NCBI GenBank assembly: GCA_965231215.1
Contig: OZ246423.1
Span: forward strand, 1,088,001 to 1,152,000
From: Candidatus Altimarinota bacterium
GTDB taxonomy: Bacteria > Patescibacteriota > Gracilibacteria > UBA4473
Length of the DNA: 64,000 nt
Direction of reading: 5' to 3'
Part shown: piece by piece, positions 20,396-48,470 of the stretch
How positions within the stretch are numbered: the first letter of the stretch is position 1
Layout of the letters: each line of letters opens with the position of its first letter
The notes under the pieces: model-generated
Databases searched by the model: none
What the model saw: the letters and a program-made list of their open reading frames with translations, nothing else
Told to the model about the DNA's origin: nothing
Position numbers and translations under genes: made by a program

Positions 20396-20452
20396 TTTTC
20401 CCCATAAGATCAAACCAAAAGTGCAAAATTTGTGACAAAAAAGTTTTGCACA
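20396..20452. promoter_or_regulatory. Cluster of DnaA-box-like 9-mers upstream of purA-dnaA
   Basis: TTTTGCACA (20444-20452) fits TTWTNCACA; one-mismatch boxes at 20396 (+), 20420 (-) and 20431 (-). Confidence 0.5.
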
Positions 20453-20528
20453 TTTTTATCAGATTTGAACTTGAGTCATGAATAATTTTACAAGAAGTGA
20501 ATTTTTTTTAGAATTCGCCCGTTATTAA

Positions 20529-21848: not shown

Positions 21849-23168
21849 ATGAGACAACCCCTAATATTCACCTTCAGTTTAGCTTGCTTGGCTGTAGCTT
21901 TCACCGCTCAGGCTCAAGAGACTCATTTTGGTGATGTGAATGAGGATCTCTATTTTCCTAATGGAGTTCTTTTAGAAGGGACTAACTCTACGACGCCAGG
22001 AACGGCCAATATAGAGATCGGTGGATCGGGGACCCTTACTATAGGGAACCAAGCCGGGGGAGGTTTTCCTCGTCTTATGATTGTAGGAGGTACCAAAATC
22101 ACAAGTGTCAGAAGTTTTGCCCCAGAAGAAATTAATGTAACTACTTGGGATGGACAATTTACAGCCCCTGGGAGTTCGGTTAAGCCGAATTCAGATGAAA
22201 TAACTTTCAGCGGATATACTCCGTCTCCAGATGTTGAGGCGGTTGCGGCTTTTAATTGGGGACTAGCGAATGAAAAATTCACCTTTGCTCCTAAGGCCGA
22301 AGTAGCACTACCAGTAGATGAGCAAGATGGGCAGAAGTTATGGACTGCTTATGAAGCATCAGATGATTGGCAGGTGAAGTCTATTGAAGATTTTTGTATT
22401 GCTGATAAGGGGCTTTGTACGCTTTCGGTAGGAGATGTAAATAAGATTGCTTTGGTTAAAGAGAATTTTGATACCTGTCCTATTACAAATATCAGTAATG
22501 GGAGTGTGGGGAGTATTCCTAGTTGTGTAATTACATGTGACAGTGGGTATGAACTTAATAGTGAGGCCAATGGTTGTGAAACCATCTCTTTTGGAGACGG
22601 TGAAACGGCTTTTGATGATACTACTACTGAAACCGGGTTTACTGGGGATGACAACTTTTTGCCAACAGAATTTGTAGCGCCAGCTAAAGAATATGAATTC
22701 CCTCCAGGACACTTTAGATACAGAGCCTCTAGTGAAAAGTTTTATAGAATGCTTGACGAAGAGGGTTTGGATGAAACAGATCTAGAAGTTGTTCGACACC
22801 AAAATACAACTTACCTTTCACGAAATCCTCGCACAGCGGCTGAGCAGATTGCTGCACGTGAAGCTCGCGAAGGAAATAGAGGTGAGACTGCGGCTGAAAA
22901 AGATGGATTTATCAGCTATTTGATTGAAATGCGAAATAAATTTGGAGATAACGCTCAAGAAAACCACTTTACCGCTCTTAGTGATGAGGGAGGAGAGAGT
23001 CATGCTTCAGCTCCCGTTGACGGAGCCGGAGACGATGATGATGGAGACTACTATGCCGCTGGCGGCGGAAGCACTGGAGGACTACTCCCCAGTACTGGAC
23101 CCGGTATGTTCCTCGGAATTGCTGTGGTCGGATTTATGCTCATGCTTTTCGGAGCAAGAAGGAGCTAA
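21849..23168 (+). CDS. Secreted surface protein with Cys-rich module and C-terminal LPxTG-like anchor
   Basis: Signal peptide; CVITCDSGYELN...GC module; LPSTG + TM + RRS. Confidence 0.7.
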   Translation: MRQPLIFTFSLACLAVAFTAQAQETHFGDVNEDLYFPNGVLLEGTNSTTPGTANIEIGGSGTLTIGNQAGGGFPRLMIVGGTKITSVRSFAPEEINVTTWDGQFTAPGSSVKPNSDEITFSGYTPSPDVEAVAAFNWGLANEKFTFAPKAEVALPVDEQDGQKLWTAYEASDDWQVKSIEDFCIADKGLCTLSVGDVNKIALVKENFDTCPITNISNGSVGSIPSCVITCDSGYELNSEANGCETISFGDGETAFDDTTTETGFTGDDNFLPTEFVAPAKEYEFPPGHFRYRASSEKFYRMLDEEGLDETDLEVVRHQNTTYLSRNPRTAAEQIAAREAREGNRGETAAEKDGFISYLIEMRNKFGDNAQENHFTALSDEGGESHASAPVDGAGDDDDGDYYAAGGGSTGGLLPSTGPGMFLGIAVVGFMLMLFGARRS

Positions 23169-23213
23169 TTAACTATTGCTATAATTGATTTCTGGATATT
23201 TTGTGGGTCCAAT

Positions 23214-23238
23214 TACCCTCCGCTTGCGGGGGGTTTTT
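23214..23238 (+). terminator. Intrinsic terminator
   Basis: ACCCTCCGC-TT-GCGGGGGGT followed by a T-run. Confidence 0.6.
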
Positions 23239-23364
23239 GGTAAAGTATGGGCTGGAGGTTTTACCTCCCCCCAGGAGCCCCCCACCAAGAAGGAGCTCAC
23301 TTAATTTAAGGAAATCACAAGACCTTAAATTAGTTTGCGGTTTAAATATAGGTTTAAGAAGTTT

Positions 23365-24441
23365 TTAGATATAGGAACAAATCTTATCACCCATCTCATT
23401 ACAACTGAGTTTGGTTTCACCTTCTTTGTTGGCAAAGATGTCGCCGGTTCGGAATCCGTCTTTTATGGTTGATTTAATAGCGTTATCAATGGCGTCAGCT
23501 TCGGTGTGAAGATCAAAAGAATGTCTGAGCATCATGCTAGCAGACATAATCTGAGCGATAGGATTAGCAATATTCTTGCCAGCAATGTCTGGAGCAGAAC
23601 CTCCTGAAGGTTCATAAAGGTGAATCTTTTCTCCAAAGCTCGCAGAACCGAGCATCCCTAAACTTCCAGGGAAAACACTCGTAAGATCACTTATAATATC
23701 TCCAAACAGGTTAGGGCAGGCGAGTACATCAAATTGGCGAGGCCATTTTACGAGCTGCTGTACGGCATTATCTACATACAAACTTTGAAATTGTATCTCT
23801 GGCCAGTTTTTAGATTCTGCTTCAAACACTTCTCGCCACAAACGAGACGTCTCAAGGACGTTAGCTTTGTCGATGGAGTGTAGGACCTTTTTTCTTTTTT
23901 GAGCCGCCTCAAACGACGCTCTAGCTATTTTTTGTATAGTGGTTCTGTCATAGGTTGAAGTATCTAGAGCCAAGTCTTCTGTGGGACGTCTATGTTCTCC
24001 AAAATAAATTCCACCAGAAAGTTCTCTTATGACTAAAATTTCAAAGCTGTCTTCCCCAATAATGTCTTTTCTAAGAGGACAAAATTCATTGAGTTCTTTG
24101 AATACAGGAGCCGGTCTGAGGTTGATTGACGCTCCGATAAATTTTCGGATGGCTAAGATTGAGTTTTTTTCACAGTCCATCCATTGAGGCTCAAATTGGG
24201 CTTCTACTGGCCCACCAACAGAGCCAAAGAGTACCGCATCGGATTGGTTTACGAGGGCTTTAGTTGCTTCTGGAAAGTGGTTTTGATGCTTGGGCCAAGC
24301 CGCACCACCAATCAGTCCATGATTAATTTCAAAACTATGTCCATATTTTATTTCGATTCTTTGTAAAACCTTTACGGCCTCAGCGCAGACTTCTTCTCCG
24401 ATACCGTCTCCGGGGAGTAGGGCAATTTTGTAGCTTTTCAT
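23365..24441 (-). CDS. leuB: 3-isopropylmalate dehydrogenase
   Basis: GDGIGEEV, DKANVL, NLFGDIISD, GGSAPDIAGK. Confidence 0.96.
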   Translation of the reverse strand: MKSYKIALLPGDGIGEEVCAEAVKVLQRIEIKYGHSFEINHGLIGGAAWPKHQNHFPEATKALVNQSDAVLFGSVGGPVEAQFEPQWMDCEKNSILAIRKFIGASINLRPAPVFKELNEFCPLRKDIIGEDSFEILVIRELSGGIYFGEHRRPTEDLALDTSTYDRTTIQKIARASFEAAQKRKKVLHSIDKANVLETSRLWREVFEAESKNWPEIQFQSLYVDNAVQQLVKWPRQFDVLACPNLFGDIISDLTSVFPGSLGMLGSASFGEKIHLYEPSGGSAPDIAGKNIANPIAQIMSASMMLRHSFDLHTEADAIDNAIKSTIKDGFRTGDIFANKEGETKLSCNEMGDKICSYI

Positions 24442-24482
24442 GTGGTGCGATTGTAAAAAAATTTATATAATCATCAACAGTT

Positions 24483-24890
24483 ATGAAAAAATCTAAAAAT
24501 CATATTCGGGGGTTTAAAGTACTTTCGGTGTTCGCTTTTTTTCTGCATCTCTGTATTGTGATTTTATTTTTTAGTTCGCCGTTTTTGCCTTTTTGGTGGC
24601 AAATAACATTTTTAGTTTTGGGCGTGGTAACACTGCCTCTTCGAATTCTGTTTTTTGAGGGGAAATGCCCCTTTACTGGGTGGGAGAGGTATTGTCGTAG
24701 AGAAGCCGGGGATATGAAGGCCAAAATTCACACACACACTTTTATGGAGGCTTATTTTGGTATGCCAGATGCTGTTTTCAAAAAAGTTGAAAAAAGTATC
24801 ATGGGACTTTTGGTCATCACGATACTTTTTTATATTTTTATGGGACAAAGTTTGTGGCAGTGGTGTTTTACCGCTCTTGTCCAAACATAA
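24483..24890 (+). CDS. Small membrane protein (DUF2784-like)
   Basis: LH...TM...CPFTGWE motif. Confidence 0.55.
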   Translation: MKKSKNHIRGFKVLSVFAFFLHLCIVILFFSSPFLPFWWQITFLVLGVVTLPLRILFFEGKCPFTGWERYCRREAGDMKAKIHTHTFMEAYFGMPDAVFKKVEKSIMGLLVITILFYIFMGQSLWQWCFTALVQT

Positions 24891-25890
24891 CGACCCAATA
24901 AGCTCCTTTGTAGTAGGTTCCCTTGGTCACCGGTTGACGGCCAATACCTACTTCCAGAAAGTTTGGGTTCATTACATCTTTCCATTGATTTTCAGAACCT
25001 CTCCATTTGGTGATCAAACCAGCAGGGGAGTAATCACCCACAGTAGTATTTTCTCCTAAAGCCATATAGTCATAGTCTACTTCTCGAGCTCGGTCAGCGA
25101 CTTTTTTGCCTTGTGGATCAATATAATGGAAAAATTCTTCCTCGTTCATTCGTTCAGAATAGTACTGCGAAGCCGCTTCTAGCTTTACGTCTCGTTTAAA
25201 ACTTGGAAGATTGTTGGCACGACGTACTTGGTTGAGCAATAAAAAGAACTTGTCTTTGTACGGATCAATACCTTCGAGTGAGGCATAAGATCGGAAATTA
25301 AATTCTCTTGAAGGCTTGTCGGTTCGATTAGTCATAATCCGGAAGATGAGTTCCGCCATTTCTCCTCGAGTGATGGCTTTTTCAACTTTGTCGATGTCAA
25401 AAGGAATAGCCCTTCTGTCAGACAAAATCTGTACAAAGGGGGCATACCAAGGCTGGAGCTCTTCTAGAGGGAGGTTAAAGCTCTGGGCGATAATTTTAGC
25501 CGCTTCACTAAAGATAATATTTTGTCCTGGTTTGAAGGTTCCGTCTGGGTATCCATCTACGATCCCTTCACTTTTGGCCACGCAAATGTAAGGCGCAAAC
25601 CAGGCATTTTTAGGAACATCGGTAAAACTAAAGCTATTTAGATTACAGGTATCTATTTCTAGCTGATTAAACTGACTAGCTACCAAAATTTTAGTAAATT
25701 CGGCCCGGTTAATATTGTTTTTGGGGCGGTAGTAGCCGTCTTTATAACCTTCTACCACGGCCTTACTTTTGAGATAAGAAACCGATTCGCTGTAAATATT
25801 GTTTCGGCTGACATCTGGAAAACTCGCACTTTGGGCGAGGGCTAAAAATGGAAAGACTAACACCGACAGCCCAAAGATTATTTGTTTCAT
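24868..25890 (-). CDS. S-layer homology (SLH) + CAP-domain protein
   Basis: Signal peptide; GYKDG..INRAEF, TRGEMA SLH repeats; C-terminal GEN...EVGIG...YWVVMFG. Confidence 0.88.
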   Translation of the reverse strand: MKQIIFGLSVLVFPFLALAQSASFPDVSRNNIYSESVSYLKSKAVVEGYKDGYYRPKNNINRAEFTKILVASQFNQLEIDTCNLNSFSFTDVPKNAWFAPYICVAKSEGIVDGYPDGTFKPGQNIIFSEAAKIIAQSFNLPLEELQPWYAPFVQILSDRRAIPFDIDKVEKAITRGEMAELIFRIMTNRTDKPSREFNFRSYASLEGIDPYKDKFFLLLNQVRRANNLPSFKRDVKLEAASQYYSERMNEEEFFHYIDPQGKKVADRAREVDYDYMALGENTTVGDYSPAGLITKWRGSENQWKDVMNPNFLEVGIGRQPVTKGTYYKGAYWVVMFGQER

Positions 25891-25921
25891 TTTTTTTTAG
25901 ATTGTATACCAAGTTAAAAAT

Positions 25922-26956
25922 TTATTCCATTGGGGTTCCAAAAACCTGAACCCAAATAAAACCTGCATATCGAGGATCATTGGTTTCCTGAACTTTGCCT
26001 ATCCCTATTTCTTTATATTCGGATTTGATAATGTTGCCCCAATGAGGAGGCGATTTTTTCCAGGTATCAAAGACTTCTTGAGCCGTTACTTGCCCCTTGG
26101 CGATATTTTCACCAACAAACCTATAGCGATATCCGGCGTCTCGGACTCTATCGCTAGGAGTAGAACCTTCTGGGCCAATATGGTCAAAGAAGTTTTCATC
26201 ATCCATAAGTTGGGCAAACTCTTGGGCTACTTCTTGGAGCACTGGATTAAAGGTTAATGGAGCCGCCCCTAAATCCTTTCTGGCTTCGTTTACTAAATCC
26301 AATACGTCTTCAATATGGGCACTACCATCAGGAACATTTGGATCTCTCGGTTTTATTTCAATTTCTGGAGTGGCATTAAATTCAAAGAGGCTAGCCGGTT
26401 TGTTCTGAGTATTGGTTTTAACTCGGAAAATAAGCTCAGCCATTTCGCCTCTAGTGATGGTTTTGTCTACCTTGGTAATACTTTGAGGAATGGCTTTGGC
26501 GTCAGAAAGGCTTTTGACGTAAGGCGCATACCAAGGCTCTCTACGTTGAGTAGCGAGACTGAAACTCTCTACAATAATTTTAGCGGCTTCCGTAAAAAGT
26601 ATGTTATTGGCCGGATCAAACGTCCCATTTGGGTAGCCTTCTATAAGGCCCTGTTTTTTAGCTATACAAATGTAAGGGGCAAACCAGGCTTGACTGGGAA
26701 CATCCTCAAAGGTGTATTTTTGAGTGTCACATTCACGGATGGAGTTATCTGCAAATCTAGAATGCATTATAATTTTGGTAAATTCAGCTCGATTAATGGA
26801 GGCGTTTGGCCGAAAGGTGCCATCAGGATATCCGCTTATAATTTCTAACTTCCTTAAATGTTCAATAGCTTCCCCAAAAGGCAGCGCATCAACATCACTA
26901 AAATTAGCATGAGCCAAAAGGGGAAATCCGAGAATAAGGAGTAGAAGTTTTTTCAT
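25922..26956 (-). CDS. SLH + CAP-domain protein (tandem paralog)
   Basis: GYPDGTFRP..INRAEF; FFDH, GENIAKG, SPPHWGNI, WVQVFG. Confidence 0.9.
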   Translation of the reverse strand: MKKLLLLILGFPLLAHANFSDVDALPFGEAIEHLRKLEIISGYPDGTFRPNASINRAEFTKIIMHSRFADNSIRECDTQKYTFEDVPSQAWFAPYICIAKKQGLIEGYPNGTFDPANNILFTEAAKIIVESFSLATQRREPWYAPYVKSLSDAKAIPQSITKVDKTITRGEMAELIFRVKTNTQNKPASLFEFNATPEIEIKPRDPNVPDGSAHIEDVLDLVNEARKDLGAAPLTFNPVLQEVAQEFAQLMDDENFFDHIGPEGSTPSDRVRDAGYRYRFVGENIAKGQVTAQEVFDTWKKSPPHWGNIIKSEYKEIGIGKVQETNDPRYAGFIWVQVFGTPME

Positions 26957-27022
26957 TTTTTTCCATAGGCTCTTTTTTTGAGAAGCCGATAAATAAACAA
27001 ATCTAGGATATAAGTTTGCCAG

Positions 27023-27042
27023 ATTCTGGACAAGCCAGAATA
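27023..27042 (-). repeat. 20-bp palindromic element abutting the leuD stop
   Basis: ATTCTGGACAAGCCAGAATA, identical to 29601-29620. Confidence 0.85.
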
Positions 27043-27669
27043 TTAGAGACCAAAAGCCTTTTGCTGGTCATCAAAATGGTGAATTTTTGGCTGAAACTCT
27101 AAAAGGTAGTCCATATCAGAAAGCCCCTCAAGGAGTCGTTTTTTGCTAAACTCAGAAATTTCAAATTTATAGAGAGTTTCATCACTATCGGTTACGGTTT
27201 GAGTTTGGAGATCCACCGATAACCTTTCTCCAGATTTGAGAAATTTTTGGACTACGGCTTCAGGCAATACTACTGGTAGAATACCGTTTTTTTCAGCATT
27301 CCCTTTAAAGATATCAGCAAAGTCAGAAGCAATAATTACATCGATCCCCGCATCTTTGAGTCCCCAGGGGGCATGTTCACGACTGGAACCACATCCAAAG
27401 TTTTGTCCCGCTACCAAAATGCTTTGCCCACTGAATTGTGGGAAATTCGGATCACTTTTTCTAAGATTAAAAAATACGTGTTTTCCCAGGCCTTCTTTGG
27501 TAGTTACCTTTAGAAACTGAGCGGGCATGATCATATCCGTATCAATGTCTTTGATAGAGAGACAGATAGTTTCGGCTTGGTATTTTTTAAATTCCATTGA
27601 GGCCTCTGCCTCTACGTTTTGATGAGTAGATTTATGTCCTTGAGTGGAGTCAAATAAGTGATTATTCAT
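27043..27669 (-). CDS. leuD: 3-isopropylmalate dehydratase small subunit
   Basis: DIDTDMIMPAQFL, NFGCGSSREHAPW, FADIF. Confidence 0.96.
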   Translation of the reverse strand: MNNHLFDSTQGHKSTHQNVEAEASMEFKKYQAETICLSIKDIDTDMIMPAQFLKVTTKEGLGKHVFFNLRKSDPNFPQFSGQSILVAGQNFGCGSSREHAPWGLKDAGIDVIIASDFADIFKGNAEKNGILPVVLPEAVVQKFLKSGERLSVDLQTQTVTDSDETLYKFEISEFSKKRLLEGLSDMDYLLEFQPKIHHFDDQQKAFGL

Positions 27670-27672
27670 ACT

Positions 27673-29070
27673 CTAAAAGAAATCATCTGGGTCAGTAATT
27701 TTTCCAGTTACAGCGGCTATGGCCACCATCTTGGGGCTCATCAAGTGCGTGAAGCTCCCTTGCCCTTGTCGACCAACAAAGTTTCGGTTCGAGGTTGAGG
27801 CGCATCTAGATCCTGCTGGCACGGCATCGCCGTTCATGGCAATACACATAGAGCATCCAGAACCCCGGACCATAGCTCCGGCTTTTTGAAAAATTTCAAC
27901 AAGGCCTTCAGCTTCACATTGAGCTCGAACTTTTTCCGAGCCTGGAACCACGAACGCCTTTACCCCTTCAGCTACAGAGTTGGTAGCCAGGATCTCAGCG
28001 ACAGCTCGCATATCTTCAATGCGGGAGTTGGTGCAGCTGCCCATAAAGGCATAATCAATGGGAGTATCTTTAATAGGAGTACCCATTCTAAGGCCATTGT
28101 ATTTAAGTGATTTTTCAGCGGCTAAGATTTTGGCTTCATCGCCGATTTCTGCAGCTGTAGGAATATTTTGAGTCACCTCTATGCCTTGTTCAGGATTCGT
28201 GCCCCAGGTGACAAATGGATGCCTTCCTTCTAAATCAATTTTTATAATCGTGTCGTATTCAGCGTCTTGATCTGAAGTCCAGATAGACCATCTTTTAACT
28301 TCTTGATCAAAATTTTTATTCACAAATTCTCTGTCTTTTAAATATTCAAAAGTCTTTTCATCTGGACTGACAATCCCAAATCTACCACCGGCTTCAATAC
28401 TCATATTGCACATGGTCATTCGGCCTTCCATCGAGAGGGCTTTAATGTAGTCACCACAAAATTCCATAGCATGGCCATTAGCCCCTTGGATTCCAATCTG
28501 GGCAATCAAAGCTAAAATAGCATCTTTAGCGGTGAAATGTTTGGTAGGGGTTCCGCTGAATTCCACTTTCATCGTTTTTGGTCGATCCAACAGCAAAGTC
28601 TGTGTAGCCATTACATGTCCAATCTGAGTAGTTCCAATACCAAAAGCTAAGGCCCCGAAGGCTCCGTGAGTAGAAGTATGACTGTCTCCGCACACGATAG
28701 TGCGTCCCGGTTGAGTTAGGCCTAATTCGGGTCCAATCACATGAACAATTCCCTGGGAGCCAGATCCAAAGTCAAAGAGAGGAATCTCAAACTCTTTGCA
28801 GTTAGCCCTCAGTTTGTCTACTTGGGCTTTGGCCTGGTTGTCCACGTAGGCTTTTCGAGTCTTGTCAGTAGGCACCGAGTGATCAAGGGTTGCAAAGTTC
28901 CTATGAGGGCAGGCAAATTTGGTAATACCTCGTTTTCGAAGCCCCTCAAAAGCCTGAGGACTAGTCACTTCATGAATGAGCTGTAGATCAATAAAAAACA
29001 CGTCTGGTGCGCCGGCTTCATGATGCACTTGGTGTGCCTCCCAAATCTTATCAATAATGTTCTGTTTCAT
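27673..29070 (-). CDS. leuC: 3-isopropylmalate dehydratase large subunit
   Basis: HEVTSPQAF, CGDSHTSTHGA, GSCTNSRIED, CSMC, STSNRNF. Confidence 0.97.
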   Translation of the reverse strand: MKQNIIDKIWEAHQVHHEAGAPDVFFIDLQLIHEVTSPQAFEGLRKRGITKFACPHRNFATLDHSVPTDKTRKAYVDNQAKAQVDKLRANCKEFEIPLFDFGSGSQGIVHVIGPELGLTQPGRTIVCGDSHTSTHGAFGALAFGIGTTQIGHVMATQTLLLDRPKTMKVEFSGTPTKHFTAKDAILALIAQIGIQGANGHAMEFCGDYIKALSMEGRMTMCNMSIEAGGRFGIVSPDEKTFEYLKDREFVNKNFDQEVKRWSIWTSDQDAEYDTIIKIDLEGRHPFVTWGTNPEQGIEVTQNIPTAAEIGDEAKILAAEKSLKYNGLRMGTPIKDTPIDYAFMGSCTNSRIEDMRAVAEILATNSVAEGVKAFVVPGSEKVRAQCEAEGLVEIFQKAGAMVRGSGCSMCIAMNGDAVPAGSRCASTSNRNFVGRQGQGSFTHLMSPKMVAIAAVTGKITDPDDFF

Positions 29071-29244
29071 TAGCTCAAATAATGTAGGGAATTTTGCGGT
29101 TTTGGGAAGGTGATATAAAGAGAAATAAAGTTTATTTAATAGCAGATTTGGCGGTAAGAGGTAGAGAGTTACCTAACTTTGTTTGGACGCAGATTTAAAG
29201 CCTGGGGTACCTGAAACTAAATCACGTTGAGGGAAAGCCCCTGA

Positions 29245-29574
29245 CTACTCCCAAAATTTCCACTGATCAAATCGCACATTTTGAAATGGGGCGAGCGTTT
29301 CTTTTACCGTACTGAACTGATCACTAATAGAGGTTTTTACACCGTTAATTTGTTGATTCACAGCATCGAGTGAAGTCTGAATCGCTTGTACTATTTCCCA
29401 TACCTGCCAGAGCACGTAACCAATAATTGCCAAAAATATAAACGTCCATAAATTACTAAAAATCCAGCTAATCAAGCTTTTATAAAACGGTGGATGAACG
29501 GCTCTATCAATATCTTCTAGCCGGCTCATGATGTAGTCGAGTTTTTGTTCTACGGTTTTTGGTTTTCTAGCCAT
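29245..29574 (-). CDS. Hypothetical single-TM coiled-coil protein
   Basis: 109 aa with one central TM, between leuA and leuC. Confidence 0.7.
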   Translation of the reverse strand: MARKPKTVEQKLDYIMSRLEDIDRAVHPPFYKSLISWIFSNLWTFIFLAIIGYVLWQVWEIVQAIQTSLDAVNQQINGVKTSISDQFSTVKETLAPFQNVRFDQWKFWE

Positions 29575-29600
29575 CGGTATTTAGGATAGTAAATGATCTA

Positions 29601-29620
29601 ATTCTGGACAAGCCAGAATA
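29601..29620 (-). repeat. 20-bp palindromic element 1 bp after the leuA stop
   Basis: ATTCTGGACAAGCCAGAATA. Confidence 0.85.
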
Positions 29621-29621
29621 A

Positions 29622-31145
29622 CTATTGTTTGGCTAAAAGGGCTTTATTAACAACTTCAAGATACGCCAGGATAGCGGCTTTTACAATATCTTCATTTCCG
29701 GCTCGGCCAGTAATCACGTGTCCATTTTTATGTTCTATCCGAACACTAACAACGGCTTGAGCATCAATACCAGAGGTTACGGCATCCATAGTAAATTCAG
29801 TGAGTTTTCCGTGATCGCCACAAATATCTTTAATGCAAGCGTAGGCTCCATCTACCATCCCAGTGCCCTCATGACGAGTAGTTTGGGTTTTGCCTGATTT
29901 TAAATTTTTAAGCGTGACTTCAGCAAAGGGTTTGTCCCTATCTCCAGAACCAACCGCAAAGGCTTCAAGCTCCCAAATATGGTTCTTATGCGCTTCTTCA
30001 CCCATCACTAAGATCATCAAGTCTGAGTCTGATATTTCTTTTTTCTTATCAGCGAGGGCTTTAAATTCTGTAAAAATTTCATTGAGCTGAGTTTCATTGA
30101 GTTGGTAGCCAAGTGCTTTGAGTCTATCGGCCAGGGCGGCGCGCCCAGAGTGTTTTCCTAATACCATTTCGGTCTTTTCTGCGCCGACAGATTCAGGTGT
30201 CATTATTTCATAAGTTTCTCGATTAGCTAAGATTCCGTGTTGATGAATGCCCGCCTCATGAGCAAAAGCATTGCGTCCAACAATAGCTTTGTTAGCCTGA
30301 ACTTTTTGTCCGGTAATCTGCTCAAGCAGTTTAGAAGTTTGATATATCTCAGGGCTTTTAATTCCAGTTTTAATATTATAAAAATCTTTACGAGTTTGTA
30401 GTGCCATTACGACTTCCTCGAGTGAAGCGTTCCCAGCTCGTTCACCGATTCCATTGATAGTACATTCTATTTGCCTCGCTCCATTTTGGACTCCGGCTAG
30501 GCTGTTGGCTACCGCTAAACCTAAGTCATTGTGGCAGTGCGTAGACCAAATGGCTTTATCTGAGTTTGGTACTTGTTTGATCAAGTAGGCTATAAGATCT
30601 CCAAACTCATCTGGGGTAAGATAGCCAACAGTGTCTGGAATATTTATGGTATCGGCTCCAGCCTCGATAGCAGCCGTCAAAACCTTCACTAAAAAATCCC
30701 TATCAGATCGGCTCCCGTCTTCGGGTGAAAAATCGACTCTATCGCATAAAGATTTGGCCAATTTCACCCCTTTAACGGCCATCTCTAGGACTGCTTCTGG
30801 CGATTTTTTCAATTTATATTCCATATGAATAGGGCTGGTAGCAATAAACGTATGGATACGTGGCTTTTCGGCTAATTTTATCGCGTCAGCTGTGGCTTTT
30901 ATATCGTTTTCCATGGCTCGAGCCAGTCCACAAACTTCAGATTTTTTTACCACTTTGGCAATACGTTCCACAGCCGTGAAGTCATCAGGACTGGCCGCGG
31001 GAAATCCAGCCTCCATAACATCTACCCCAAGGCGCTCAAGCTGTAGGGCGAGACGAATTTTTTCTTCAATGTTCATAGAAAATCCAGGAGATTGTTCCCC
31101 GTCTCGAAGAGTTGTATCGAAAATTTTTACGTAGTTTGGGTTCAT
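29622..31145 (-). CDS. leuA: 2-isopropylmalate synthase
   Basis: [33 protein letters not shown]; C-terminal regulatory domain. Confidence 0.97.
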
Positions 31146-31157
31146 ATTTTAATTTTT

Positions 31158-31190
31158 AAAAAAAACAGCTCTGAGTTTTGCTCGAGCTGT
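31158..31190 (-). terminator. Attenuator terminator upstream of leuA
   Basis: ACAGCTC-GAGCAAAACTCA-GAGCTGT followed by a U-run, ending 12 nt before the leuA ATG. Confidence 0.85.
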
Positions 31191-31217
31191 CTAGTAATTT
31201 GAAAAATTTTTTCACAC

Positions 31218-31271
31218 CTAAACCGCTCGAATTTCGAGAGTAAGCAGCAGGAGCAGAGAAAAGTTTTTCAT
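31218..31271 (-). CDS. leuL: leu leader (attenuator) peptide MKNFSLLLLLTLEIRAV
   Basis: ATG AAA AAC TTT TCT CTG CTC CTG CTG CTT ACT CTC GAA ATT CGA GCG GTT TAG; five tandem Leu codons ahead of antiterminator and terminator. Confidence 0.85.
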   Translation of the reverse strand: MKNFSLLLLLTLEIRAV

Positions 31272-31282
31272 TTAGCTCAACG

Positions 31283-31310
31283 AGTATACGATTTAACGTG
31301 TGTGAGTCAA
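31283..31310 (-). promoter_or_regulatory. leuL/leuA promoter
   Basis: TTGACT-N16-TATACT, 11 nt before the leader ATG. Confidence 0.75.
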
Positions 31311-31395
31311 TATTATAAAATATTGAATGTTTCTTCATAGAAACGCTAAGAGATATTTAATGATAAAAATCCAAAAACCATTGTGACTTAAAAAT

Positions 31396-31887
31396 TTAAT
31401 CCAACTTTTCTATGAGTTGGTCAATGCCATTCAAAAACAACACCAGAATGATAACCAGCATAATAGCTCCGCTTATCCCCAATATAAGACGTCCGTTATG
31501 GCTTTTTTGAGGTTTAGTGTGTTTGAGCTCAACTTTGTGTACCAACCCATCTCTTATCCACACAATGATGGCAAAAAGACTTACGGTAAGTATCATGAGG
31601 GTTAGCATGATAATCGGGTCAGTCTTCTCTACGATTTTGTAGAGTAAGAAGGCCCCACACAGATTCACCATGAAATGACAGGCAGCATCAATAGCTTCCC
31701 GTATTTGATTTACAGAAATATAATAGACGAAACATCCAATGGGAACAACAAGCCCAATGAAGATAAAGAGTAGGCCCATAATAGGGGCGGCAGTACTAAA
31801 ATATCCGAGTCCTACAATCACCATAAAATAAACCAAAAGCCGAAAGGTAAGTCCGTGACCGTACCACTGATCAAGCCATTTGTCCAT
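31396..31887 (-). CDS. Hypothetical membrane protein
   Basis: 163 aa with about 5 TMs. Confidence 0.7.
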   Translation of the reverse strand: MDKWLDQWYGHGLTFRLLVYFMVIVGLGYFSTAAPIMGLLFIFIGLVVPIGCFVYYISVNQIREAIDAACHFMVNLCGAFLLYKIVEKTDPIIMLTLMILTVSLFAIIVWIRDGLVHKVELKHTKPQKSHNGRLILGISGAIMLVIILVLFLNGIDQLIEKLD

Positions 31888-32023
31888 AGTGATGAGAAGT
31901 GCTAAAAAATGATAATTTCATTGTTGAAATTCAGAACCTTGCACATCGTACAGCCCAAGTACGATTTAGACAAGAACCTAGATTTTGCCTTGAACTTATC
32001 TATTTTTTTAGACCTTCTAATTT

Positions 32024-32398
32024 TTAAGATTTGTGTGCAATTATTTCTATTTCTACCTTCGCGCCTTTTGGGAGCTTACTGACTTCAACACAACTTCGAG
32101 CGGGTTTGTGATCACCGAAAAAATCAGCATAGATGTCATTTACAACTGCAAAATCATTGATGTCAGATAAAAATACAGTGGTTTTCACGACCTTGTTTTT
32201 TTCAAGCTGAGCGGCGTCTAAAAGAGCTGCAATATTTTTTAATACTTGTTTGGTTTGTCCTGAAACATCCGTATCCAAAAAATCACCCTCTGGAGTTAGA
32301 GCAATTTGCCCAGAAAAAAACACCAGATTTCCGGCAGAAACCCCTTGGCTATAAGGTCCAATGGCACTTGGCGCCTGAGGAGTGTTTATTATTTTCAT
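32024..32398 (-). CDS. ridA: RidA-family enamine/imine deaminase
   Basis: APSAIGPYSQG, SGQI, PARSCVEVSKLP, VEIE. Confidence 0.92.
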   Translation of the reverse strand: MKIINTPQAPSAIGPYSQGVSAGNLVFFSGQIALTPEGDFLDTDVSGQTKQVLKNIAALLDAAQLEKNKVVKTTVFLSDINDFAVVNDIYADFFGDHKPARSCVEVSKLPKGAKVEIEIIAHKS

Positions 32399-32523
32399 TT
32401 TAAAAAGGTAAGACTCATACATGATAGGGCGCAATAGGCGCCTCTACAACTAAAAAATAACTTGACTTGGATCGCGATAATTCTATATTTCTGCGGCTTT
32501 GTACTTATCAAAAGTATTTATTC

Positions 32524-48035: not shown

Positions 48036-48470
48036 TGGTGGAGATGGCGGGAGTCGAACCCGCGTCCAAAGTGGAAAATATGTACCTTCTACGCTTATAG
48101 TGTGTTTTAGTACGATTGAAGCTATGAACACACAAACTACTTCAAAAGGTTCAGTAAGATTTTCGAATCAAATAGCACTGAGAACTATCTGACCTACACC
48201 GCTAAATAAGATGCATTACTTCACGGTAAAGTAATGCATCACCTAGGAGCAAAAGGCTCAACTAGGGTTTACCTATGAGCTCAAATTAAGCTACACGAGC
48301 GTAAGCTGGCATAGTCATAGCATCTGCGAAAGATCGAAGTGCTTTGTGAGCTCGAGCAAATGGTTTAGCATTTGTCTTTGTACCATCGTGGATAACTGCT
48401 ACGTCGGTACCTCAAGCAGAAACGCCAATAGATATTTTGCGAATCACCTTGTCGAATCCGGGACATCCCC
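48036..48470 (-). ncRNA. ssrA: tmRNA, 435 nt
   Basis: 5' GGGGATGTCCCGGATTCGAC; 3' GGTTCGACTCCCGCCATCTCCACCA; tag frame at 48369-48286. Confidence 0.95.

Follow-up and report, generated by a model that had tools for sequence, protein, structure and literature searches.

The window analysed here, a stretch of 64,000 nucleotides, carries the leucine genes of its host on the minus strand (Table 1). The 2-isopropylmalate synthase gene leuA is followed by a 109-aa ORF, leuC and leuD, and these three genes probably share its transcript. Further on, leuD and leuB are separated by two YkwD/CAP-domain genes; leuB is located downstream on the same strand as leuA and has a promoter-like site of its own at 24477-24450. 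Immediately upstream of leuA, a first-pass annotation made from the letters alone had noticed a complete set of attenuator elements, and this element is the subject of the present study. The annotation had placed a promoter, TTGACT-N16-TATACT, at 31310-31283 and a 17-codon ORF with five tandem Leu codons at 31271-31218. We found the promoter at exactly these coordinates on the minus strand, and the ORF is likewise exact to the base. It had also claimed that the 3' end of the leader pairs at 12 of 13 positions with a downstream stretch. In our analysis 12 positions do pair, one of them as G-U, the thirteenth is a G/A mismatch, and the partner stretch is 31194-31181. Finally, a terminator with a U-run was proposed 12 nt before leuA, in agreement with the hairpin at 31192-31163, the U8 tract behind it and the start of leuA at 31145.

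Table 1. Features of the leuA locus and of related units elsewhere in the genome. Positions without a prefix are those of the window.
Feature	Position	Strand	Basis or remark
-35 hexamer TTGACT	31305..31310	-	sequence and promoter scan
-10 hexamer TATACT	31283..31288	-	16-nt spacer after the -35 hexamer; 11 nt before the leader ATG
Leader ORF MKNFSLLLLLTLEIRAV, 17 codons plus TAG	31218..31271	-	ATG at 31271, TAG at 31220-31218
Tandem Leu codons CTG CTC CTG CTG CTT (sensor and region 1)	31242..31256	-	pairs with region 2 in the free RNA
Region 2, antiterminator 5' arm UUCGAGCGGUUUAG	31218..31231	-	includes the leader stop codon; masked folds and duplex energy
Small A/U spacer hairpin within the antiterminator loop	31200..31214	-	masked folds
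Region 3, antiterminator 3' arm	31181..31194	-	overlaps the terminator 5' arm; duplex energy, folds, pair counts
Intrinsic terminator	31158..31192	-	hairpin 31192-31163 and U8 tract 31165-31158
leuA, 2-isopropylmalate synthase (regulated gene)	29622..31145	-	NF002086, E 7.5e-226, 750.6 bits
109-aa ORF between leuA and leuC	29245-29574	-	ORF list and profile search; no family match
leuC	27673-29070	-	same strand, downstream of leuA
leuD	27043-27669	-	same strand, downstream of leuC
Two YkwD/CAP-domain genes	within 24868-26956	-	gene order; between leuD and leuB
tmRNA gene	48036-48470	-	RF00023, 98 bits
Thr leader MQNTTNTTTAKAG	G000:C1:655326-655439, L149 327-440	+	before thrS, behind TTGACT-N17-TAATAT
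Val leader MRQPFVVVVNV	G000:C1:743579-743467, L150 about 3080-2968	-	before valS, behind TTGACA-N17-TACATT
Leu/Val leader MKKLLVVLVK	G000:C1:249736-249850, L213 1386-1500	+	terminator with T6; before ilvB
Aromatic (Phe/Tyr/Trp) leader MQKFFYGFFYFWFNRGLA	G000:C1:464182-464311, L237 133-262	+	terminator; 19 nt before the DAHP synthase gene (aroFGH family)

The promoter in front of the leader has 10 of 12 matches and is the joint best site that the promoter scan returned in 23000-32500. In addition to the tandem codons, the leader holds a sixth Leu codon (codon 12, CTC). The terminator hairpin comprises 12 pairs with one bulged A (-13.6 kcal/mol), and in the 12 nt that separate the U8 tract from the leuA start no Shine-Dalgarno sequence is visible for leuA. 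The RNA from the leader ATG to the terminator is only about 80 nt long and mostly coding. The choice of codons in the leader also deserves attention. CTG is the rarest Leu codon of the genome (0.11) and supplies three of the six Leu codons of the leader, and the tRNA-Leu anticodons encoded in the genome are caa, taa, gag and tag only. The rare codon and this tRNA set fit a sensitive sensor, without being proof of it. A 60-aa ORF that overlaps the element in another frame (31156-31338) was treated as spurious, because in the close relative L003, where it has no counterpart, the upstream gene stops just before the promoter.

Bacterial transcripts usually begin about 7 nt after the -10 box, and the distance between the promoter and the leader start codon is therefore informative. 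We determined this distance in 28 leaders of the host's own family, located before leuA, thrS and valS. A -35/-10 pair with at most three mismatches lies 7-19 nt before the ATG in 24 of the 28 leaders, as compared with 12% of random positions in the same regions, and the spacing is 7-11 nt in 22 of these 24. With up to four mismatches allowed, 26 leaders have such a pair, and in 24 of these the distance from the end of the -10 box to the ATG is 7-11 nt. This conserved spacing indicates that the leaders are probably translated from leaderless or nearly leaderless mRNAs, and supports the first-pass view of the leuA leader as near-leaderless and devoid of a Shine-Dalgarno sequence. For the leuA leader, the predicted transcript start is probably at the ATG or a few nucleotides before it. 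A different arrangement was seen in family f16, where the leader ATG overlaps the stop codon of an upstream membrane-protein gene (ATGA) at L010 and L128; this arrangement suggests that the leader is coupled translationally to that gene instead of having a promoter of its own. A similarly close junction between the upstream gene and the Leu leader is present at L125, also in f16.

The first-pass annotation had proposed to fold the leader with and without constraints; we folded the free RNA and then the RNA with a 27-nt ribosome footprint masked, bearing in mind that such folds describe equilibrium only and that the real decision is kinetic. In the free RNA (-31.7 kcal/mol), the Leu-codon stretch pairs with GAGCGGU of region 2 (1:2 pairing) and the terminator is formed. 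Both alternative pairings that had been pointed out within the leader, CTCGA/TCGAG and CTGCTC/GAGCGG, appear in the folds. Placing the A site at Leu codon 9 or 10 makes the antiterminator between regions 2 and 3 the lowest-energy fold (-20.9 kcal/mol) and abolishes the terminator. At codons 7 and 8, the balance still tips slightly towards the terminator state (-23.0 and -21.5 vs. about -20.9 kcal/mol). When the footprint sits on the stop codon, the terminator is back (-17.4 kcal/mol). The RNA switches as the classical model predicts for stalls at codons 9-10, and has a slight preference for the terminator at codons 7-8. Because the folds switch only at codons 9-10, the thermodynamic fit is best for late stalls in the Leu run.

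The antiterminator duplex of leuA has an energy of -18.2 kcal/mol, vs. -7.9 kcal/mol for shuffled sequences. The same pairing, between the segment around the leader stop codon and the terminator 5' arm, is found at all 14 leuA loci where we detected a leader, with a mean duplex energy of -20.5 kcal/mol (shuffled, -7.9), and the fraction of shuffles as good as the real duplex is at most 0.017 at every locus. The core of the pairing differs from group to group: it is UCGAGC/GCUCGA in the host's own genus, CCGAGG/CCUCGG in G010 and GAGAGGCU/AGCCUCUC in family f16. Since the paired sequences are wholly different between genera, it is the architecture that is conserved. Covariation was also looked for, as the first-pass annotation had suggested. 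When six sequences from different genera were aligned with MAFFT, the two more distant genera had their helices out of register, and in the within-genus alignment the same was true of the terminator 3' arm; pair counting was consequently confined to the eight antiterminator pairs in four sequences of the genus. In this set, 31 of 32 cells pair and two of the eight pairs are changed on both sides, but the covariation is statistically weak, as 75 of 500 shuffles equal it with four sequences.

The distribution of the element was examined with a detector that has two requirements. The first is an ATG-initiated ORF of 6-30 codons in which one amino acid occurs at least four times within seven codons; the second is a terminator-like hairpin plus T tract, beginning between -15 and +90 nt relative to the ORF stop. 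The gene leuA is present in 55 of the 401 genomes of the class sample, and all 56 loci were examined. The Leu detector is positive at 14 of these 56 upstream regions, so that the Leu-rich upstream ORFs for which the first-pass annotation had asked relatives to be searched do exist. The positive loci belong to the host's own family (6/12), f16 (7/12) and f18 (1/10); the leader architecture, with differing sequences, therefore occurs in other genera and in at least three families of the class. Two weaker cases, L008 and L122, were recognized by eye only and have weaker terminators. The same 56 regions gave no matches for Thr, Val, Ile or Phe, and one each for Ser and Lys. Within the host genome, the upstream regions of 776 ORFs of at least 200 aa contain four Leu detector matches, and only that of leuA scores six Leu in seven codons. 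Outside the CPR, none of the 79 upstream regions of the nearest leuA genes among the matches listed, from Proteobacteria and Anaerolineae at about 52-56% identity, was positive. These data show that the combination of leader and terminator before leuA is not due to chance. In other classes of the phylum, two of seven leuA loci (L246 and L247) have a Leu-rich ORF, a terminator and a stop-codon arm, as judged by reading the printed ORFs, terminators and sequence without the fixed detector and with one further locus, which belongs to an unpublished genome, left out.

On the other hand, 42 of the 56 leuA loci of the class have no leader by the detector. At five f16 loci a leader ORF is missing; in four of these (L132, L134, L136 and L144), a terminator behind the upstream gene is all that is kept. 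Given the 42 loci without a detectable leader and the four f16 loci with a terminator alone, the leuA leader is often lost or replaced.

The leuA element has company in its own genome. Two genome-wide scans and a relaxed scan revealed four further units with this design, located beyond the window before ilvB, a DAHP synthase gene, thrS and valS (Table 1). The thrS terminator, CTCCGGGAAACCCCTGGAG with T9, ends 20 nt upstream of the gene, and a copy of its 3' arm lies directly after the leader stop. The valS terminator, GCTCGCTGTATTTTAGCGAGT with T6, ends 30 nt upstream of valS. In all four units, a copy of the terminator 3' arm at or just after the leader stop can be read from the sequence (the comparison with shuffled sequences concerns leuA only), and these copies could serve as the antiterminator arm. 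In the family of 43 genomes, thrS is present in 43 and valS in 42, and we looked at 30 loci for either gene. At 14 of the 30 thrS loci, an ORF with four or more Thr in seven codons comes before the gene, and the full detector is positive at 8 of 30. For valS, at least five Val in seven codons were found at 7 of 30 loci, and the full detector likewise gave 7 of 30. Non-cognate matches amount to none for Leu or Val at the thrS loci, and to three for Leu and none for Thr at the valS loci. A short ORF rich in Ile, Leu and Val is present at 6 of 16 ilvB loci of relatives, the T-tract hairpins behind these ORFs being recognized by eye only. By eye, no cognate leader was seen before putative leuS, ileS, proS and metS/cysS genes or a 605-aa ThrS relative, whose identities come from local phmmer matches only. 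Met-rich short ORFs before a sugar transferase gene and a methyltransferase-like gene were set aside as probable chance occurrences.

Some properties of the proteins encoded behind the leaders were recorded as well. The ThrRS of the host genome, G000 (L149 441-2228), is poor in Thr, which makes up 3.4% of its residues and puts it at the 4.5th percentile among ORFs of 300 aa or longer; the Leu content of LeuA and the Val content of ValRS are unremarkable. A shortage of the sensed amino acid in the regulated enzymes is therefore only faintly visible. About 46 extra residues interrupt the profile match of IlvB, between positions 338 and 339 of the profile. In many ValS proteins of relatives (L193-L211), the match breaks near query residues 473/484 within one open frame of 1050-1340 aa, which suggests an insertion, some 200 aa long or longer, absent from G000.

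A few other sites may be of interest for regulation. In the gap between purA and ilvC of the window (20420-20460, plus strand), the 5' region of ilvC contains a hairpin, GTGCAAAA...TTTTGCAC, with ATTTTT behind it; the short ORF near this hairpin, MNNFTRSEFFLEFARY, has no amino-acid run. Elsewhere in the genome (G000:C1:787027-787010, minus strand), a promoter-like TTGACA is followed by a terminator-like hairpin, CGCCCCATTTTGGGGGTG with T5, located 31 nt before a 957-aa ORF; having no leader ORF, this site could be an attenuator of another kind. Two short ORFs ending in ...RPSGKGRKEI and ...RPSGKGRKEV, at about G000:C1 628100 (plus) and 634600 (minus), are each followed by a terminator and a gene (409 or 425 aa), and the pair looks like a repeated leader or a mobile repeat.

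The leuA element closely resembles the leucine attenuator of Escherichia coli and Salmonella. In both, a short ORF with tandem Leu codons precedes leuA, and the RNA offers a 1:2 pairing, a 2:3 pairing that acts as antiterminator and a 3:4 pairing that forms the terminator with its U tract. The logic, here as predicted, is also the same, namely read-through when charged tRNA-Leu is scarce. The reading of the element as a classical leuL-type attenuator was already that of the first-pass annotation, and it has gained from our analysis: every sequence hallmark is present, and the architecture recurs in other genera. The leader described here differs from leuL in being shorter, with 17 codons, and in starting 11 nt behind the -10 box without a Shine-Dalgarno sequence; moreover, the stop codon itself is part of the antiterminator arm, and the host belongs to a different phylum. 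There is no detectable homology in sequence or structure either. The RNA family of enterobacterial leuL, Rfam RF00512 (Leu_leader), has no match at the gathering threshold in the 64-kb window and none in 31000-31500 even when E values up to 10 are admitted. Neither the leuA element nor any of the four sister loci has an Rfam match above threshold; Yfr10, the best match below it (28 bits vs. a gathering threshold of 43), was discarded, as it merely reflects the terminator hairpin. The leuA element is accordingly a predicted functional analogue of leuL that falls outside RF00512.

Leaderless leaders have a parallel in Corynebacterium. In C. diphtheriae, transcription of the ilvB leader begins at the start codon of that leader, and leuA is preceded by a leu leader that has four Leu in tandem (PMC5784534). 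An aromatic leader, aroR, precedes the DAHP synthase gene aroF in Corynebacterium (Neshat et al., 2014, as cited in PMC11802643). Corynebacterium (leuA, ilvB, trp and aroR-aroF) shares with the host studied here both the leaderless design, which is probable here, and the targets leuA, ilvB and DAHP synthase; it differs in belonging to an unrelated phylum with no shared sequence, and in that the design is here also found at aminoacyl-tRNA synthetase genes. For the latter use there are precedents too. In E. coli, a leader peptide with cognate codons, pheM, controls the synthetase genes pheST (Springer et al., 1985, cited in PMC11802643), and attenuators have been predicted before trpS and leuS in Streptomyces (PMC1262725). 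Both are precedents for switches at thrS and valS, with other amino acids (Thr and Val) and another lineage in the present case. In the literature that we covered, which lies largely outside subscription journals, we found no paper on leader-peptide attenuators of thrS or valS, nor any on leader-peptide attenuation or on a T-box or riboswitch in Patescibacteria/CPR. The first-pass annotation knew of no description of such an attenuator in the CPR, and in this respect it stands; what has to be qualified is the novelty of the leaderless leader, which is not unique to this lineage because Corynebacterium has one (PMC5784534). The leuA element is a textbook mechanism in a lineage for which we found no published example.

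Taken as a whole, the data make it very likely that a ribosome-mediated leader-peptide attenuator sets the expression of leuA, and probably of leuA-orf109-leuCD, according to the supply of charged tRNA-Leu. The elements of this attenuator, their mutual exclusivity, their conservation and their specificity were established by computation. In the model, transcription would begin at the promoter of Table 1 and the 17-codon leader would be translated off a leaderless or near-leaderless 5' end. With Leu-tRNA plentiful, the ribosome would reach the TAG codon and cover region 2; regions 3 and 4 would then fold as the terminator, and the polymerase would stop 12 nt before leuA. With Leu-tRNA scarce, the ribosome would stall in the run of five Leu codons and hold region 1, leaving region 2 free to pair with region 3 as the antiterminator, and the polymerase would enter leuA. 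In the absence of any ribosome, the 1:2 pairing would let the terminator form. It is the transcript start, the translation of the leader and the response to leucine that we infer here from the arrangement of these parts.

Several other explanations were weighed against this attenuator. The leader ORF and hairpins might be conserved without operating a classical switch, expression being controlled in a Rho-dependent manner, at the level of translation or by a protein that binds the leader. A warning in this direction comes from S. coelicolor, whose look-alike ilvB and leuA leaders did not fit attenuation, since mutations of the regulatory codons had no effect or an effect unlike attenuation (PMC1262725). 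The preference of the equilibrium folds for the terminator at codons 7-8 and the missing Shine-Dalgarno sequence of leuA would also suit such control. However, a strong terminator with a U8 tract is present here, a terminator with a matching antiterminator is kept in 14 of 14 detected loci, and leaders with cognate codons before five different genes fit ribosome sensing, so that we regard non-classical control as improbable. Still less probable is an antitermination driven by tRNA or a small molecule, like that of a T-box or riboswitch, with an incidental short ORF. Alternative terminator and antiterminator hairpins alone would suit a switch of this type, and T-boxes (RF00230) likewise sense tRNA charging and choose between terminator and antiterminator before amino-acid and synthetase genes. 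Unlike leader-peptide systems, though, they bind the uncharged tRNA directly and need no translation. RF00230 has no match in the whole genome, with 5 of 14 control genomes positive, and the Rfam searches of the element and of the four sister loci were equally empty. Moreover, some 80 nt of mostly coding RNA are all that is available between ATG and terminator, and the amino-acid run matches the downstream gene in every case.

The two remaining explanations concern the ORF itself, and we give each of them very little credence. No residue is commoner than leucine, and raw six-frame scans often return short ORFs rich in it, which account for 303 of the 878 short ORFs with at least four of one residue in six codons; a chance ORF could therefore lie beside an ordinary terminator, for instance that of the upstream 163-aa gene (31396-31887), or beside an insulator. 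Yet a promoter stands between that gene and the leader, the score of the leuA leader is reached by only one of the 776 gene upstream regions, and both the ORF and the pairing are conserved across genera despite differing sequences. Alternatively, the 17-residue peptide might be the actual product, a small membrane peptide or a toxin, rather than a sensor. It is hydrophobic, and the N-terminus MKN is common to four of the six leaders that the detector found in the host's own family. Nothing but the Leu run and the RNA pairings, in contrast, is conserved across families, and a role in the membrane leaves unexplained why the sister leaders are rich in Thr, Val or aromatic residues according to the gene that follows.

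The host of this attenuator has a genome consisting of a single closed contig of 1,326,059 bp, 99.3% complete and with 35 tRNA genes. Ribosomal protein uL30 (PF00327) was not found in it; 13 of 14 control genomes have this protein. The genomes listed in the class and phylum samples range from 0.6 to 2.0 Mb; more than 140 families are represented in the phylum sample. These features fit the CPR/Patescibacteria, an affiliation of the host that is supported only indirectly. Members of this group are mostly uncultured and usually described as amino-acid auxotrophs, a premise that the first-pass annotation had adopted. For the present organism it does not apply to leucine: ilvB, ilvC, ilvD and leuABCD are all present, and the organism is therefore not a Leu auxotroph. 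In the phylum sample, leuA was found in 15 of 401 genomes. To our knowledge, almost nothing is known about gene regulation in the CPR/Patescibacteria.

Looking beyond leuA, we lean slightly towards the view that leaderless leader-peptide attenuation is the general means of amino-acid sensing in this CPR-like lineage. It would gate the entry enzymes of the few pathways kept (leuA, ilvB and DAHP synthase) and do the job of the T-box at thrS and valS, and this small modular regulon would have been built by placing a copy of the terminator 3' arm at the leader stop. As the mechanism is a textbook one, the value of the finding lies in the lineage and in the breadth of the regulon and not in a new principle. 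Leaders with cognate codons could be used to predict the amino-acid specificity of downstream genes, as metatranscriptomic read-outs of nutrient limitation and as test cases for leaderless translation. Altogether, a member of this group with a full branched-chain pathway probably also regulates that pathway through ribosome sensing of charged tRNA, and the same compact, probably leaderless design is reused at two other biosynthetic entry enzymes and two tRNA synthetase genes.
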